Assembly (NCBI RefSeq): GCF_022045235.1
Contig: NW_027266275.1
Span: 25,110,001 to 25,174,000 of the forward strand
Direction: 5' to 3'
Source: Haliotis cracherodii
Taxonomy: Eukaryota
DNA: 64,000 nucleotides
This document shows, piece by piece, positions 1 to 15,175 of the stretch. A program made the translations under genes and the position numbers. The notes under the pieces are model-generated. The model saw only the letters and a program-made list of their open reading frames with translations. It had not been told where the DNA came from and did not search any database. Every line of letters starts with the position of its first letter. The stretch's first letter is position 1.

Positions 1-69
1 CGTGCCCAAGGGACGCAACTCTGCACAGCGAATCGCGGCGCCTTAGACGACTAGGCCACCCGTGCCTCC
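1..69 (-). mobile_element. SINE family C (tRNA-Leu/Ser-like head), 5' part of a copy cut by the window edge
   Basis: Matches 14116-14184 and 57558-57626. Confidence 0.8.
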
Positions 70-934
70 GCATCAGTAAGAGGGACAGGAACTGAATGTA
101 GAAGATTATGTCCCGGTGAGATGTCTCATAAGAACCTACATCCTATAAGAACCTACATCCTACTCTTGTTCTCAAATCACAGTGTCTTTTACTTGATATT
201 GATTAATACACATGTCCCACAAATATACTCACCGATAAAAGAAACGCGAATACCATACATGTTCGTTAATATATGAAGAATTACTCATATTCAAGAGATA
301 TTAGATTGGTTGGTTCGACGCACAACGAACGTACTGGAATGTTGTGTGAATCGACGCTCATGAACGCATCACATTTGACGTCATATATCCATGAATCGAG
401 ACGCACCATTTATCTCGTGCAGAACTAGCGTGTAAAGTTTGGAAATCTCGTGCAGCGTGTCGTGATAAGAATAAAGACACTCTGTGGTAACACTTGACTG
501 ATTGTTAGTTTTGTCATAAAGCGCTACACATTGGAAACATCTCTTCTCAACGTACATTCTTCTTTATGTCTTTCTATGGTTCGCGTTTCTTTTGGCGGTG
601 AGTATACTATCTTTAATAACATATTGTCATGTGTGCCTTTTTTATGCGAGGAGATTTTTCTGCCGATCAGTATATATGTTTTTCGCAAGGAGTATTTTTC
701 CAAATTTTTAGATTTTCATCATAACAATAAACGATTGTTTGGATATGAATGCTATTTTTAAACCTGTTGATTCAGTACATCGTTGCATGACACAGGAAGC
801 AATGCATTGTAGACTAACTACGTTCATATCCTGCAATAAAGTGTACTCTAAACATCTACCAGTTTAACATATGTAATAGGATGCATATGCATGCGTCTTC
901 AGAGATAAGTGACACATGCATGTTCTAATTGTAG

Positions 935-4025: not shown

Positions 4026-7000
4026 ATGGATATAAAAGTTGTTGTACTACTTCTACTGTATGTGGTTGGTCATGTAGTGTCTGTGCCGCCGAGGCAGTGT
4101 CCTGACACGTCTGTGTGGAGGGCTGACCTGCACGGGTGTGTTCCCTGTAAGCACCTGTGTGGACATACGGATAAACGCACCTGTCCAGGGGAATGTTGGA
4201 GTGAGTACAAGTCTTTTAACTTTTCACTTATTTTGGCGTCGTTGTGATATGTTGGACATGTATTACATGATTGGCTAATTGGACATCTGTGAATTAATTG
4301 TTATGATGTTGTCATGAGAACACGTTCATTTCCTTGTGGTATATATTCATACTATGGAAAGGAACAAATAATGTATACATTTTAACTCGACCCATCTATT
4401 TGAATGGATATCTATATGATAGTTTAAGGTTTCTGTTGGTGTATATTCAAATATAAGCCATAAATCCTTTCCATAATCATAAGAAATATGCACGTAGTTA
4501 TTCCTTTTTCCTTTCTTACATTTAAAAAATACCCGTGAAGATCCAGGTTAGAAAAGGTCTTCAGCAACCTTTGCTTGTCGTAAGGGGCGACTAACGGGAT
4601 CGGGTAGTCAGGCTCCCTGACCGAGTTGATCGTATTCATCGTATCCCAAATGCGTCGATCGATGCTCATGGTATCAATCACTGGCTTGTTTACCCCAGAC
4701 TCAATTATTTACAGACCGGGGTCATATAACTGTAATATTGCTTAGTGCAGCGTTAAACAACAAACAAACAAAACATTTTGAAAAACAACCCGTGATGTGT
4801 TATCGTTCCAATAGATTCCCATGTAATGTGACAAAAACCCTACCCATGTCACTGTCAATACACTGGCAACATACAAAACAATGAGTATCGTTCTCACACA
4901 ACATCCTGGGTGTAAAGTACATGGAACTGTACTTGTATAATGATGCGGTATTGCCCTCGGGGTCATAAAACTTCCGCGTCTAATAATAGCGCATACGTGT
5001 CTTCAGTGCGTGTCCAGGTGTTTGCAATGGTAAAGACAGTACACATACATTGTAAGAATGTCTGCAGACTATTGATAAGCTTGTAACTAATTCTCCTCTG
5101 TTTGCCATCTTTACAATTTGTGGTTTGATATATTATGCTTCAATACAGTACAATGAATGTATTGAGAGGGGCCATTGAGAGTACATATTTTGTCAGCGAA
5201 CTGATTCGTGAATCTAAGGGAAAACACGACATCTATTTGACCTTCATATACTCACAGCACTGAATATTCTTCTTAAGCATTCGTTCGTTCCGTCGTTCGT
5301 TCGTTCGTTCGTTAGTTCATTAATTATATTTCCTTTCCAGAGAAAGATGTTGTCGGATCACGCCAGAAGTCCCAGCGCGTACGTCGAAGTGGACGCGGCA
5401 GATATAAACGCGATGATGGCGACTGTGAAGACTTCTACTACTACGACAACGCTATCCACCGATGTACACCGTGTGACCACTTGTGCGATCACCACGACTA
5501 CCAAGGAACTACACAACGTTGCATGGAGAAATGTCCTGGTAGGATTTCGTTATGGCATCTAATATTCCATGTGTATTTTTTTAAGAAAAATTGCATATTA
5601 ATCTTTTTTTTCATAATTCATGGATAATGAGGCTGGGTGTCATTGATGGTGGCTTCATGCGATATACTTGTATTCTATGAAGAGAATATTGGAACTTTAA
5701 TCCACTACTATAGCCGCCTTAGTTTTTATTTCTTTAAATGATTATAAAGTTTATTGCGGGTTGTTTTTAACAGATTACTATGCAAGGATGGAAGCTACGA
5801 CCAGTTCAAAAGAGGAAAGATCAACAACGGATATTAGTTCTGACGATTCCAAAGCAGACGCTACCTTAACTGTAATATTAATCAGTTTGCTGTTAGTGTT
5901 AGCTCTGTCTGTTGGAATAATTGTTTGGAAGCGGAATCAAATTTGGCAGTTCCTGGAGAGTCTGTGTGCCACCGAGGAGGAGAAAACCTCTGTACCCTGC
6001 TCTGAGGAAGAGGGTATCTGCGAGTTCACCAATTCCAAAAGTGAGTAGCACTATTTCTGACACCCTTGGGGGAGGACAGAAACCTATGATCCTGGGTTCG
6101 AATCCCAGATTCGTCATGATTATGTTTCAAGACTTGCCAGCACCAAACCCAGAGCGAGTGTAAGACCAGGGCCCACTTGCACAAAACGATCTTAGCGCTA
6201 AGACTATTGCCTATGTTAAAGTATGGGAGTTAAGATCATCTTAGCGCTAAGATCGATTTGTGCTAGTTATGCTCAAACATGCTTAAGATACAGTCGGAAT
6301 CGTATAACGGGCTCTGCTTTTATCAAAGATTCCTTAGGATTATATAAATGGTTGTGTCGCTTTTGATTAAAGCAAACTCACTCACTGCCTGCCATAATGC
6401 ACCAGCATCCCATGCTTGCCGTAAATGGCGACTATGCTTGTCGTAAGAGGCGATTAACGGAATCGGGTGGTCAGGCTCACTGACTTGGTTGATGCATGTC
6501 AATTGCGTAGATCGATGCTCATGATGTCAATCACTGGATTGTCTGGTCCAGATTATTTACTGACCGCCGTCATATAGCTGGAATATTGCTGAGTGCGGCG
6601 TTAAACAACAAATAAAAAAACAAACAAGCAAAGCAACTCTACAGACATTTGCGATGCGTCACATTTATGAATGATGTGTAGGCCAAATCCTCATAGGTTG
6701 CCTCAGTGATCGTTCAATAAAATTGACAAGGAAATGTAAGTTGCTGCATCTATCGAACGCCCATGGTAATTATCGTACCTCGAATTTTCTACTTTGTTTT
6801 TTCTTCCTGATCTTTGTCATGACAAGAGTATAAACTGCGGGCACAAGAAAGTATACACTTGAAAACTGAATTTGAACAAAACTTACAAACGTTATCAAAA
6901 CGTTACTCGGCTGACCTGCTGTGAGATACTCATTGATGTGATGCATGTAATATCGCCTATGATAACCGTATCAAATCAGCATCGATTTACCATTTCTTGT

Positions 7001-7874
7001 TTGTTTCATGTTTAGCCATCATCAAAAAATGAGTGTGTATAATTTTTGCTCGGCAGTGTAGCTATGTTTGTTTGTTTTGTTTGTTGTTTAACGCCGCACT
7101 CAGCAATATTCCAGCTATATGACGGCGGTCTCTAAATAATCGAGTCTGGACCAGACAATCCAGTGATTGATATCATGAGCATCGATCCACCAATTGGGAT
7201 CGATGATATGCTTAAACCAAGTCAGCGAGCCTGACCACCCGATCCCGTTAGTTGCCTTTTACGACAAGCATAGTCACCTTTTACAGCAAGCATGGGTTGC
7301 TGAAGACCTATTTTACCCCGGAATCTTCACGGGTTCAGTGTAGCTATGTAAAGACAATGGATTCCTATACATGTATTTACTAACTCCGAGGGTGTTTGTT
7401 ATCGAGAGGACCACAGGTCAAACACAAACCATCAAACAAACCTGATACTGATTATTCATAAGCTCATGTTTTAATGGTATTTAAATATACTCGATGTTCA
7501 CATATATAATTAACATTGTTATTGTATTCTCCATCTTGACAACTGTTCCTTTGTTAATTTCAGCCCCTTTAACCCACTCCCTTGGACCAATATGTCAGCC
7601 GGAGACCGAAGCTCATCATGAGAATACAGCAGACAGGTATCCGTACATTGAGAAGTTTGCTGAGATTGACCTACGGTATGCAGTGTTGGATGAACCCCTC
7701 ACAAGCCACGCTACCACCCCCAAGGAAACCTATTCCTCGGATCACACCACTCTGACATCCTTCTCCAACCACTCGACCACCCCCAAGCAAACCTATTCCA
7801 CTGATGACACCAATCTGACAACCTACACCAGTCACTCGACAATCCCCAAAGTTGTTGATGCTGCTGAGCACTGA
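4026..7874 (+). CDS. G1: TACI/BCMA/Grindelwald-type TNFR-like receptor, signal peptide + 2 CRD + TM + ITIM tail (~316 aa); exons 4026-4200, 5341-5538, 5774-6040, 7564-7874
   Basis: Canonical GT/AG sites, all phase 1, with an open frame across the four exons (951 nt). Signal peptide MDIKVVVLLLLYVVGHVVS; CRD1 CPDTSVWRADLHGCVPCKHLCGHTDKRTCPGEC; CRD2 CEDFYYYDNAIHRCTPCDHLCDHHDYQGTTQRCMEKC; TM LTVILISLLLVLALSVGIIVW. Collinear with G2. Confidence 0.85.
4531..4775 (+). mobile_element. SINE-like family A (non-tRNA head), full length
   Basis: Starts ACCCGTGAAGATCC and ends GCGTTAAACAACAAAC; about 20 complete or partial copies in the window. Confidence 0.85.
6405..6630 (+). mobile_element. SINE-like family A, 5' truncated
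   Basis: Clear match to the family A body and (ACAA)n tail. Confidence 0.8.
7068..7335 (-). mobile_element. SINE-like family A, full length, 14-bp target-site duplication
   Basis: TSD cagtgtagctatgt at 7054-7067 and 7336-7349. Confidence 0.9.
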
Positions 7875-10609: not shown

Positions 10610-13600
10610 ATGGACGTCAGATATCTTCACAGGGTCTGCTTGATCTTGTGTTATCTCATCGTACAACTGTCCTCGGTTATTGCGGAATGTCCAGTTGATA
10701 GTATTTGGAGTAACCATGCACGGAAGTGTGTATCTTGTGTTGATGTCTGCGCCCTCGCACGTGGATCGGATTGTTTCAGTCGGTGTCTGGGTGAGTCAGT
10801 TTGTCATTATTCCCCAATTACTACGCCATTTGACGTTTTATTGTTCACATTCATGATTGACCTTGGCCTGGTGCCATTCCAGTAACACTGGCGAAGGAAG
10901 TTGACCTGTTTAGGTATGTCATACATGACGAAATCCCCGCCATCATCGTCTGGCACGGTGCCAATTTTTTTCGCGACTACGCTGGTGTGTTGGTAATCGA
11001 TTGCTATGGTAACTGGTTATGTTTCGGTAATGTGATTTATAGATTCCATTCAATGACAGCTTTATCGACGATTGTGAGATAATAATTAACCAAACTATTT
11101 TACTCACATTATATGATCAATCGCTTATTCACGATTAAGGGATTGATATTTCATTGAGTGAAAAAATGAAAACACTGTGAAAAAGAATCATTGTGTCAGG
11201 CGAACGTACTGATTGTTTACTGTAGTGGAAATACCAAACATTCCCTGATGTAAACAACTCACATGACTCGACACAAGCCTCGGTATCGAAATGCACCCAA
11301 TGACCTTCGCTACTACAACGTGGCGTGATACGATTTGTCGAAGGTGTTTAGACGGAAGAAAGGCATTAAGCTATTGTTCTAGGTTACGACGCAGTTGCAA
11401 GTGTGATCATGTAAACAAATCATGATAGTGACATCGATACAAAAATAACCTTCAAATCGGAATTTGTATGTTTTCTGCGCTTGTTTTCGTGTATACATTG
11501 AATGTATGGTTTTAATAACTGTTTGTGTGTAAATTATGTTATCGTACATTGCAGGTTAAGGTTGAGTGGGTACATGAACGTTAAGTCTCTTAAAACATAA
11601 TTTTGATTGAAACAAACAACTAATTTTAAACTGAAAAGGAGCCCCTGTGAGATGGTCGATTGAATCTGTGGAAAATTTAGACTTGCTTCATTCACACAAT
11701 ATCATTACAGTAATGGATGGGCGGAAGGGAAACTAATATGGTTCAGGGACAGCGAGACAGACTAGCCACGTTGGTTGCGATGCTTATTACGTCACTGTGG
11801 ATTATCACAGAGAAAACAGCAAGGGCGGGCATTCAATTTGGGGAGAGAGTTAGTATGTTTTTGCGCAGATTTCAGCAATATTCCAGCGATATCAAACCAG
11901 AAATGGGCTTCACACATTGTACCCATGTGGGGAATCGAACCCGGGCCTTCGGCGTGACAAGCGAACGCTTTAACCACTAGGCTACCCCACCGCCCATTTG
12001 GGAAGAGAACCGAGGTCTGCGGCTTAGTACAACCACCCGTTCAAGTTGAGGGCGGTCGGGTAGCCTAGTGGTTGAAGCGTTGGCTCGTCACGCCGAAGAC
12101 CCGGGTTCGATTCCCCACATGGGTACAATGTGTGAAGCCCATTTTCCGGTGTCCCCCGCCGTGATATTGTTGGAATACTGCTAAAAGCGGCGTAAAACCA
12201 TACTCACTCACTCACTCGCTCACCTTTAACTTGAATGCAGACGTGATCATAAGTGAAGTTGGAAAATTGAATACACTTGTTTGTGTTTATTTGTATCAAA
12301 TAACAGATTATTTAGAGTATTAGCTTGATCTCTGTTGAAGTATATGTGTTATATAAGTTCAGGGATGTGGTAATAGGTGTCAGTGAGGACTATTTTAAGT
12401 GACCACAGGTTTACATCATGACACTTTAAATCCCGCTTACGTGTAAACGAAGTTAGCAGGCATTAAACAGAAGGGCAAATCAGATGAGGATATGGCCTAC
12501 ACATCATTCATAAATGTGACGCATCGCAAATGTCTGCAGACAAGAGTTGCTTAGCTTGTTTATTATTTTATTTGTTGTGAAACGCCGCACTCAGCAATAC
12601 ACCAGCTTTTTGACGGCGTTCTGTAAATAATCGAGTCTGGACCAGACAATCCAGTGATTGACATCATGAGCGTTAATCTACGCCATTGGGATAAGATGAC
12701 ATGAATCAACCAAATCAGCGAGCATGACCACCCGATCCCGTTAGTCGCCTCTTACGACAAGCATGGGTTGCTGAAGAACAATTCTAACCCGGAATCTTCA
12801 CGGGATGAGTATTTTTGCGCCCCTGACATATTCATGGCACTCTCGGTAAATAAAGGAATATATTGTGCGCATGCCTGTTTTCAGTAACTGCGTGTTGCGC
12901 TAGGAAAATAAGGGAACCGTCAATCTGAGTACACAATTATTTTATTTTCAGGGACATCATCGGCGTCTGATACCTCGGGATTGACTAGGGTTCGTCTTGA
13001 TGTTTTCGGTCAGAAATGCATCAACGTCGTATGCCTGGACTTCTCCTACTGCGACCCCGGGGTAGGGGAGTGCACGCCCTGCGACCAGCTGTGCGACCAC
13101 CACCGCATCCAGGGTACAACGGAACAATGTCGACACAAGTGCCCAAGTAAACTCATCTAACATGTATTTGAATAGCAACAAATAATGTTTTCGAGAAAAC
13201 TCAATAATCTTAAAATAGATATTTTCTAAATCGATTTTCGTTTCATTTACTTAGTCTCTTTTAGATCGTGTTCAAAATGTTTCCTGATATATGGATACTT
13301 TAGGAGATGATATGATGTGACGTCATTGTGATCAGTTATCAGAAGTCAAATAAAATAGATCATATGATCATGGAAATAATTAAAACGAAACTTTCAGAGT
13401 ACTTCAACCGTATGGAACGTGTGACAACAGAAGCTCCACGCACTGATGTTCTACGTCGCAGCACCTCCGTGGAGCCTAGAGACACCAGCACGCTTCCTGA
13501 TGCCCGGCAACAGGACCACAGTGTGGCTTCAAGCGACGAGTTCAAATTTAGCGTCGTGACGATTGTAATTGTGATCATTCTGGCGGGTATTGCGGTACTG

Positions 13601-15175
13601 CTGTGGAAGACAAAGTATCTGGCCAAGATGTGTCGCCCCACCCCACAGCCAGAAGAACAGAAGTCATCTCTACCTTGCTCGCAGGAAGGGGAAGGCGATC
13701 TCATCAATTCTCGAAGTAGGTCTGCGTATGAATATTAGCAGTGGTTGCAGAAGTCTTAGTAGCAGTCGTAGCAATAATTGTATTTCTAGTAGCAGTAGCA
13801 GTAGCAGTAGCAGTAGTCGAATCACTAGTAGTAGTAGTAGTAGTAGTAGTATAGTAGTAGTAGTAGTAGTAGTAGTAGCAGTGGTCAATGCAGTTATTAT
13901 CCCCCGGTTTGAGTGAGTGAGTGAGTGAGTTGGTTTTAACATTATTCCAGTTATATCACGGCGTGTCAGCTTAATGTGGGAGGAAAGCCCGAAGTAATGC
14001 AGGTCTCAGACGTTTACCACTTCGGTGAAACCCACGAGCACGGGTATGGTGCTGACAAACCTAGAAACATAATCTGGGCGAACCGGGATTCGAACCCACA
14101 ATCATAGGTTTCTGGCGTGCCCAAGGGACGCAACTCTGCACAGCGAATCGCGGCGTCTTAGACGACTGGGCCACCCGTGCCCCCTCCCCCCGGTTTGAAA
14201 AACGAGGGAATATCGCGATCAACATATCCGTCAGTCCGTTTTTCGTTTACAGAGCAGAACTAAAGAAAACGTTAAATATTTCTTTTTGAAACTATATGGA
14301 TCATTCAGTGATGGCTTTTGATGATTTGGGATCATTTTTTATTAGATAATTTTTTTCATGATGGCAGGTTGGACATGAAACGAGGTAGTGCTCGTTTCCG
14401 GAGCAGACATCCAAAACTGTTGAATATTGCTGGATGAAACTTGCTATGCAGCTCAGTCTGGTGGTAAACTGGGGCCTTTTAATGATTTGGGATTTTTGAA
14501 GAGTACTGAACAGCATTTTTTTTTCTTCACTGAACTGAAGGTATCCAATGGCAAAGAACCAACACTAGTCATAGCAATAGTCGCTGCAGTTGTAGTTTAA
14601 TCAGCAGTAGTAGATAGTGTAATAGTTAAAGTAGTGAAAGAAGTAAGAGTAATAGTCGTAGAGTAGTAGAAGTATTGATAGGAGTTGAAACAGCCCTAAG
14701 AGTTGTACTAAGAGTGTAGTTTTCATAGTGGTAGATACTGTAGTGGGGTTACTGTAGTCCGGTCAATAGTATTTACAAAACTCTGTCCATAAGCGTTAAT
14801 ATATCTTTTGTAAAAGCAGAAGGGTTGAACCTCCGAAAGTTGTCTCCCTTGAATGTTATCACATGAAGACCAACTGTTCTGCTTCTATTCAAAACAGTAA
14901 GTTTGAACAGACCGTATTATCAATTTGCAAAACTAACAATTACTGACGCTTTATATATCCATTGTCCTTCAGCTCCACTAACTGCACCACGTGGTCCCAT
15001 TGCCCAGGAAAAGAACTTCCCGAGTGCAGAAAGTGGACATCAATCAGACCACACCGTAGACCTGGGGGTGGAGATGGGCCACCCCGAGATATGCATCCCT
15101 TATACCGAGGTGGACGGCCCCGGCACACAATCTACTGCACCAAAACGCTGTGTTGATGATCGGCTTGTGTTTTAG
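10610..15175 (+). CDS. G2: TNFR-like receptor, signal peptide + 2 CRD + TM + ITIM tail (~298 aa); exons 10610-10790, 12952-13146, 13398-13715, 14973-15175
   Basis: Phase-1 GT/AG junctions, 897 nt open frame. CRD1 CPVDSIWSNHARKCVSCVDVCALARGSDCFSRC; CRD2 CINVVCLDFSYCDPGVGECTPCDQLCDHHRIQGTTEQCRHKC; TM FSVVTIVIVIILAGIAVLLW. Exon boundaries are homologous to G1 (NSK|TPLT vs NSR|TPLT). Confidence 0.85.
11850..11996 (-). mobile_element. SINE family B (tRNA-Asp-like head)
   Basis: Reverse complement of the 12049-12222 copy; A box TAGCCTAGTGG, B box GGTTCGATTCC. Confidence 0.85.
12049..12222 (+). mobile_element. SINE family B (tRNA-Asp-like head)
   Basis: Pol III A/B boxes; GCTCGTCACGCCGAAGACCCGGGTTCGATTCCCC resembles tRNA-Asp(GTC); (CTCA)n tail. 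Confidence 0.88.
12556..12804 (-). mobile_element. SINE-like family A, full length
   Basis: Reverse complement of the family A consensus. Confidence 0.85.
13758..13880. repeat. (AGT/AGC)n trinucleotide microsatellite in G2 intron 3
   Basis: Seen directly; it produces the poly-S/V/L/T ORFs in the track. Confidence 0.95.
13913..14184 (-). mobile_element. SINE family C (tRNA-Leu/Ser-like head with long A-B box spacing), full length
   Basis: A box TGGCCCAGTCGTCTAAG, B box GGTTCGAATCC, (CTCA)n tail; TSD cccccggtttga on both sides. Confidence 0.88.

Follow-up and report, generated by a model that had tools for sequence, protein, structure and literature searches.

An abalone TNF-receptor domain with a likely fourth disulfide, probably gained after gene duplication and convergent with Grindelwald

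The ectodomain of Drosophila Grindelwald (PDB IDs: 6ZSY, 6ZT0) has an X2-C2 fold, presented as the first to be described in a TNF receptor (PMC8024323). According to the text of that paper, it carries eight cysteines in four bonds. Its X2 hairpin module (residues 35–54) holds two intercalated disulfide bonds, and its helical module reads C57-x3-C61-x11-C73-x3-C77. F46 packs between the modules, the residues in contact with the ligand Eiger are Y48, T51, E52, H66, N67, and D69, and rigidity of the hairpin is named as key to affinity. We located C35, C40, and C47 by translating two primers in the primer table of the same paper, and the resulting spacing is x4,x6,x6,x2,x3,x11,x3. From the wording "intercalated" we infer the pairs C35–C47 and C40–C54.

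The receptors TACI (TNFRSF13B; PF09305) and BCMA (TNFRSF17; PF09257) share a C-x12-C-x2-C-x3-C core and an aromatic-x-Asp hairpin, and TACI has two tandem cysteine-rich domains (CRDs). One preprint derives Grindelwald from Wengen within insects and crustaceans, as far as its available text goes (10.1101/2021.12.26.474206). Another counts 115 grnd-like homologues across invertebrates, molluscs included; these are single-pass, single-CRD receptors with a CXXCXXXC signature and occur in molluscs and annelids (10.1101/2024.07.27.603686). The main text of the latter mentions neither TACI/BCMA, nor an abalone receptor, nor a distinction between six- and eight-cysteine forms (its supplements may differ), and the accessible part of PMC9646898 holds nothing on cysteine number. 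We found no paper on the cluster described below or on an eight-cysteine mollusc domain, in a search whose scope excluded most subscription journals and bioRxiv supplements.

The G2 gene

The window, a stretch of 64,000 nucleotides of contig NW_027266275.1 of Haliotis cracherodii, contains G2, a four-exon TACI/BCMA-like TNF-receptor gene of abalone (Table 1). Our main reading is that the second domain (CRD2) of this receptor has two extra cysteines, likely joined in a fourth disulfide, and that this pair probably arose only after the duplication that separated G2 from its sister paralogue G1 and so is convergent with Grindelwald. We give this reading a probability of about 0.74.

The G2 exons agree letter for letter with a public 298-residue H. 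cracherodii protein (P0002), which has the layout of a type I membrane receptor: signal peptide, CRD1, linker, CRD2 (encoded entirely within exon 2), stalk, one transmembrane helix, and tail. The H. rufescens orthologue is already labelled TNFRSF13B-like at NCBI. Splicing was followed in contigs of sequencing runs that we presume to be RNA; none is recorded as such, and the contigs skip GT..AG introns. The join of exon 1 to 12951/2 is present in contigs from 4/4 runs, and an acceptor at 13013 was rejected because the contigs use 12951/2. The GT..AG joint 13146>13398, which skips intron 13147–13397, appears in all three presumed-RNA runs of a second comparison, and loose contig ends past 13715 fit the start of exon 4. 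The differences listed among runs in exon 2 are Leu>Arg (12997), Val>Ala (13030), Leu>Pro (13036), one linker residue, or silent, and none of these touches a cysteine codon.

Table 1. Positions of the G1 and G2 features within the window.
Feature	Position	Strand	Basis or remark
G1, sister paralogue, same four-exon layout; six-Cys CRD2 at 5424-5534	4026..7871	+	alignment, tail search, exon layout
G2 exon 1: signal peptide and CRD1 (six Cys, without hairpin Asp)	10610..10790	+	P0002 residues 1-61
G2 exon 2: linker and eight-Cys CRD2	12952..13146	+	translation, spliced contigs, P0002 match
Basic linker motif, candidate convertase (furin-type) site	12987..12998	+	RVRL in window; KVRR or RRRR in orthologues
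Extra Cys C1	13017..13019	+	TGC; CGC Arg in G1 (5409); aligns with Grindelwald C35
Six-Cys core, common to all intact paralogues	13032..13142	+	hairpin module C2-C4, helical C2 module C5..C8 (x3-x11-x3)
Extra Cys C3	13050..13052	+	TGC; TAC Tyr in G1 (5442); register of Grindelwald C47 and BCMA pre-Asp Phe
G2 exon 3: Ser/Thr stalk, transmembrane helix, tail start	13398..13715	+	spliced contigs, P0002 match
G2 exon 4 (matched coding part): cytoplasmic tail	14975..15172	+	P0002 match

By its domain, G2 is TACI/BCMA-like; we do not claim orthology to TACI. Pfam returned no TNFR-type family for CRD2, and the curated cut-offs of TACI-CRD2 and BCMA were not reached. CRD2 contains the C-x12-C-x2-C-x3-C..C-x3-C core of a hairpin plus helical CRD together with the aromatic-x-Asp hairpin, and G2, like TACI, has two tandem CRDs. 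TACI and BCMA lack the two extra cysteines and the longer helical loop (x11) of G2, and their hairpin carries the ligand motif Asp-x-Leu, whereas the hairpin-tip Asp of G2 is followed by Pro-Gly. With Grindelwald, G2 shares an aromatic residue before C3 (Phe46 in Grindelwald, Tyr in G2) and the C-x3-C-x11-C-x3-C helical module. In contrast, Grindelwald has Tyr48 where G2 has Asp, G2 adds an N-terminal CRD and a basic linker, and no sequence-profile match connects the two. None of the six Eiger-contact residues given in the text of PMC8024323 is identical in G2, where the cysteine register places D, V, G, I, Q, and T instead. Together with a tip Asp as in BCMA, this suggests that ligand recognition by G2 is probably not Eiger-like.

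The spliced form of G2 has two CRDs and in this differs from the single-CRD Grindelwald family. A one-CRD product is possible, either by cleavage or through a predicted short isoform. Such an isoform is predicted in H. rufescens (P0006); missing exon 1 and with it CRD1, it resembles the short form of TACI, and no signal peptide is evident in it. CRD1 of both G1 (4095–4196) and G2 (10688–10786) has a short x7 loop and Val/Ile-Trp-Arg/Ser in place of the aromatic-x-Asp motif. Among the four Haliotis species, 16/33 columns of G2 CRD1 are invariant against 32/37 in the CRD2 core, and CRD1 is the faster-evolving of the two. Without the hairpin motif and evolving faster, CRD1 may not bind ligand in either paralogue.

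The basic motif in the linker is likely a convertase cleavage site between CRD1 and CRD2. All seven different runs compared carry T>G at 12997, which restores the last Arg where the window has Leu (12996–12998); this Leu is an allele of low frequency or else a mistake in the assembly. The motif is RRRR in two orthologous species and KVRR in one. Linkers of the RxxR pattern are present in 6 of the 66 inter-CRD linkers surveyed, and four of these six belong to the G1/G2 lineage. The G1 linker (5373–5411) has similar basic sites, and the Arg that is replaced by C1 in G2 ends the proximal site of G1.

Eight cysteines and their likely pairing

Translation of 13017–13146 confirmed the cysteine pattern that the earlier note on this DNA had described. 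Positions 13017–13142 (+) encode C-x4-C-x5-C-x6-C-x2-C-x3-C-x11-C-x3-C, with cysteine codons starting at 13017, 13032, 13050, 13071, 13080, 13092, 13128, and 13140. Relative to G1 CRD2, the two extra cysteines lie where the note had placed them, C1 five residues before the first core cysteine and C3 just before the hairpin Asp. The note had also stated, correctly, that Grindelwald has eight cysteines at nearly the same spacing. As given by the text and primer table of PMC8024323, six of the seven intervals are as in G2, and only that between C2 and C3 is one residue longer (x6 against x5). C1 and C3 fall in the register of Grindelwald C35 and C47; the spacing shows this, and so do the end points of the structural alignment described below.

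The extra cysteines occur as a pair, and both are kept in all four Haliotis G2 records (H. cracherodii, H. rufescens, H. rubra, and H. asinina). Whole-protein identity of the orthologues is 91% for H. rufescens, 71% for H. rubra, and 67% for H. asinina, and just one of the four residues between C1 and C2 is invariant across them. Non-core cysteines occupy 8 of 1118 positions in 26 paralogues. One domain among the 41 with cysteine in each of the two registered columns would accordingly be expected 0.0002 to 0.006 times, a rough figure that ignores relatedness and the post-hoc choice of columns. Neutral, unbonded substitutions or an assembly artefact could in principle give such a pair: Tyr>Cys is an easy change at the hairpin site, and a lone cysteine stands there in a broken copy within the cluster that has an in-frame stop. 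However, that dead copy is the only one with a lone cysteine, and both cysteines of G2 are read in every run covering them. Since the two are conserved across species whose whole proteins are 67–91% identical, this explanation is largely refuted, and we regard it as very improbable.

The 49-residue G2 CRD2 was modeled with AlphaFold from a 27-row alignment of domains of its own genome. The model (mean pLDDT 78.8) has a hairpin with strands 16–19 and 24–27 and three short helices. In a VIA-align comparison with 48,161 representative chains, three chains reached Z 2 and Grindelwald was the first of them. The match to 6zsy has Z 3.2 and an rmsd of 2.5 Å (model residues 6..49 on chain residues 34..78), and that to the Eiger-bound form 6zt0 has Z 4.0 and an rmsd of 2.4 Å over 42 residues (3..49 on 31..78). 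Sequence identity over the structural alignment is 21–23%. The alignment ends set C7 of the model on C35 and C48 on C77, with a one-residue offset between them that matches the spacing. BCMA gave Z 2.0–2.4 and aligned only from model residue 10–11. The structural scores are low throughout (Foldseek E > 4, Z at most 4), as is expected for 49 residues. Memorization is unlikely, because the release of the Grindelwald structures (2021) postdates the AlphaFold2 training cut-off.

A control model of the six-cysteine G1 CRD2 shows the same hairpin and helices with a disordered N-terminus. Over the first ten residues, the mean pLDDT is 63 in G2, which forms two beta-bridges there, and 50 in G1, which forms none. 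Foldseek ranks BCMA first for the G1 control, and its TM-scores to Grindelwald are 0.55 and 0.56 for G1 and 0.49 and 0.35 for G2. The G1 scores being no lower, these models suggest that a Grindelwald-like shape is a property of the whole family, to which the extra pair would add only an N-terminal staple. The structural alignment with Grindelwald and BCMA that the earlier note had called for thus answers in two parts: Grindelwald is indeed the best match of G2, with C1 on C35, but in Foldseek the six-cysteine G1 resembles it to no lesser degree.

The invariant cysteines of the family would form C2–C4, C5–C8, and C6–C7, which by elimination makes C1–C3 the likely fourth disulfide of the modeled domain. 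The alignment ranges of G2 and its ordered N-terminus in the predicted model are consistent with two intercalated disulfides in the hairpin. The derived pair could also be bonded otherwise, as C1–C2 with C3–C4 within the chain or between chains in a covalent receptor dimer. In the predicted hairpin, C3 and C4 are cross-strand neighbors, and the bridges of the model at 5–6 and 11–12 flank C1-x4-C2; covalent dimers of TNF receptors do exist. We nevertheless consider such bonding improbable. C2–C4 is the invariant bond of the family, in agreement with the BCMA register, and the N-terminus of the G2 model superposes on Grindelwald from residue 3. Grindelwald itself has the same cross-strand arrangement, and its bonds are intercalated according to the text of PMC8024323.

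In the mechanism that we propose around a C1–C3 bond, two point transitions (Arg CGC>TGC and Tyr TAC>TGC) would be enough for the gain. The three family bonds would be kept, and the new one would fasten the short N-terminal segment to the first hairpin strand. The Tyr that precedes C3 would face the helical module and pack on it, like F46 of Grindelwald, whereas C3 would point the other way, so that the N-terminal segment would be attached on the opposite face of the strand. Six-cysteine relatives mostly put a bulky side chain at the C3 site, and the bond may replace the cover of the lost aromatic residue. A one-bond hairpin of the BCMA/TACI type would in this manner become a two-bond, intercalated hairpin of the Grindelwald type (X2). 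The bond would stiffen the ligand-contacting hairpin, and it would hold the new N-terminus if cleavage at the basic linker removes CRD1. Such a cut would leave a one-domain receptor beginning six residues before C1, a plausible reason for selection of the staple. A role of the extra cysteines as a tether to the cleaved CRD1 was rejected, because CRD1 has an even six cysteines. We predict that CRD2 binds one of the many TNF trimers encoded in this genome through a hairpin tip with a vertebrate-type Asp, and that the receptor signals through a tail with no recognized death domain.

BAFF-R offers a further comparison. It has no C2 module, and its extra cysteine lies one position earlier and is paired with the second cysteine of the CxxC. 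Being placed and paired otherwise, it represents a separate solution. Its X2 module resembles the hairpin proposed for G2 in having two intercalated disulfides, a topology that the text of PMC8024323 gives for Grindelwald too.

The paralogue cluster and the direction of change

Of the 29 matches found in the H. cracherodii genome, 28 lie in a single cluster. When 464 kb surrounding the window were scanned with a profile, 41 domain exons were located at 25.049–25.360 Mb of the contig (C12). This tandem cluster (G000:C12:25,048,814-25,360,560, including window positions 4026–55667) extends over about 310 kb on both strands. Its genes are one- and two-domain receptors, and nearly all are "uncharacterized" in public records. 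The full helical module is present in 40/41 exons, the x11 loop in 33/40, and the hairpin Asp in 32/40. Only the exon of G2 CRD2 (1/41) has a cysteine at both extra sites. The broken copy (L048:4866-4970) has an in-frame TGA, a short deletion, and a lone, unpaired cysteine at the site of G2 C3 (4884–4886). Another domain (L022:1501-1632, − strand) has a seventh, unpaired-looking cysteine in its last helix (C-x-C-x-C), which is kept in H. rufescens (P0021, P0092). TNF domains are also numerous in this genome, with 60 matches above the Pfam cut-off among 68 candidates, in tandem arrays on contigs C67, C7, C48, and C31; this ligand expansion parallels the receptor cluster.

In the PDB, a family profile of 36 domains (35 with six cysteines and one with eight) matched TACI (E 0.003), BCMA (E 0.005), and Fn14 (E 0.16); Grindelwald was absent from its matches up to E 10. 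PF09305 matched 14/36 paralogue domains weakly, with a best E of 0.0044. A single-sequence PDB search with G2 CRD2 gave nothing relevant (1 match, E 3). In the ESM Atlas, G2 CRD2 lies near the TACI-CRD2 and BCMA clusters at 0.82–0.88, values that serve as leads only, and no usable match appeared when these two families were skipped. Word-index protein searches returned Haliotis proteins only (3, 3, and 23 matches).

A search of a 50%-identity protein library with the profile gave 352 matches, and among the best 150 of these the hairpin cysteine is present only in the H. asinina orthologue of G2. We surveyed 163 distinct domains in all; five have a cysteine at the hairpin site, and all five are G2 or its orthologues. 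Domains of Nucella, Babylonia, Batillaria, Littorina, Gigantopelta, Ruditapes, Potamilus, Solemya, and TACI are without the pair. The 20 of the best 150 that were looked up by name are abalone, the mollusc genera just listed, human and bichir TACI, one Piridium transcriptome entry, and six unnamed entries; on this basis, none of the best 150 of the 352 was assigned to an arthropod, annelid, or brachiopod. Over these 163 domains, the survey of six- and eight-cysteine forms proposed in the earlier note gave the pair only in the Haliotis G2 lineage. Its identified sequences include no arthropod or annelid, and it may have overlooked eight-cysteine forms in other Lophotrochozoa. Two bivalve members, from Ruditapes and a relative (P0024, P0028), extend the N-terminus in another way: a C-x-C directly precedes the core, and upstream there appears to be an additional hairpin. 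The Piridium sociabile entry (P0054) is a member of the family. Piridium is a parasite of snails, and the entry is probably host contamination.

In a tree of 176 rows, the eight-cysteine domains form one clade (support 100/83) that is sister to G1 CRD2 (100/85) and nested among six-cysteine domains of snails, bivalves, and vertebrates. With the trait column masked, G1 CRD2 and the eight-cysteine clade still group together (99/88; 84 rows), also after seven long or divergent rows were dropped (99/92; 58 rows); the upstream extra cysteine lies outside the aligned core of the masked trees. All trees rest on 36–37 columns with bootstraps that had not settled. They contain no arthropod row, and no Grindelwald sequence stands in any alignment or tree. 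Comparison outside the cysteines points to the same sister. G1 is identical to G2 at 16/30 non-cysteine core positions (13 for the next domain of equal length), and in a search of 177 proteins with the transmembrane segment and tail of G2, the nearest non-orthologue is G1 (E 1e-8; next 0.02). In the DNA alignment with G1, a single transition separates either extra TGC from the G1 codon opposite it (CGC for Arg, TAC for Tyr). Such one-step changes run equally in either direction, gain or loss. G1 orthologues were obtained for H. rufescens only, so the G1/G2 duplication is dated just as older than the split of G2 among the four species.

We also considered that the protostome ancestor had eight cysteines, that Grindelwald and G2 kept them, and that the six-cysteine mollusc forms lost the pair. 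The spacing of G2, one residue off that of Grindelwald, and the rank of Grindelwald as best structural match of the model speak for such retention. An AU test with the eight-cysteine clade forced next to TACI, below all mollusc domains with six cysteines, did not reject that basal placement (delta lnL 16.6, p 0.22). By the CXXCXXXC signature, grnd-like receptors occur in molluscs, annelids, and a coral, according to the main text of 10.1101/2024.07.27.603686. However, retention requires separate losses in G1, in adjacent caenogastropod domains, and in other abalone and bivalve lineages. CRD, tail, and exon layout all mark G1 as the sister of G2. The reach of the family profile to TACI and BCMA but not to Grindelwald, and the lack of all six Eiger contacts in G2, also count against it, as does one BLAST survey in which Grnd is confined to insects and crustaceans, in the available text of 10.1101/2021.12.26.474206. 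We judge retention unlikely. Because a single gain on the way to G2 is much the simpler history compared with losses in several lineages, an independent gain of the pair, convergent with Grindelwald, is favored, and we hold it to be likely.

The earlier note had read the six- and eight-cysteine sister pair as a bridge by descent between insect and vertebrate receptor types. This reading is weak: one exon in 41 has the pair, its sister has six cysteines, two transitions separate them, and the six-cysteine control is equally Grindelwald-like in overall shape.

Implications

The best reading is that the whole mollusc family, and not the G1/G2 pair, combines features of the BCMA and Grindelwald types. 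This family of short TNF receptors is large and mostly unannotated, and it joins an Asp hairpin (32/40 intact cluster domains) with an x11 helical module (33/40). It could descend, with TACI, BCMA, Fn14, and Grindelwald, from one bilaterian ancestor, G2 replaying the fourth-disulfide step and becoming a mimic of Grindelwald after cleavage; we hold this wider proposal tentatively, at somewhat short of even odds. On the origin of Grindelwald and its link to the vertebrate receptors, two preprints disagree in the text available (10.1101/2021.12.26.474206 and 10.1101/2024.07.27.603686), and the mollusc family as an intermediate of TACI/BCMA and Grindelwald is the more durable lead.

The eight-cysteine state of G2 warns that, within the TNFR superfamily, a disulfide pattern taken by itself is a poor guide to descent. 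With a probable second X2-C2 domain two transitions from a six-cysteine sister, the path between the module types is likely short. Under the wider proposal, G1 and G2 would offer a natural before-and-after test of the fourth bond. The two sisters lend themselves directly to experiments on what an extra bond does for folding and ligand binding. A cluster of 41 TACI/BCMA-like exons facing about 60 TNF-domain matches is relevant to the immunity of molluscs.
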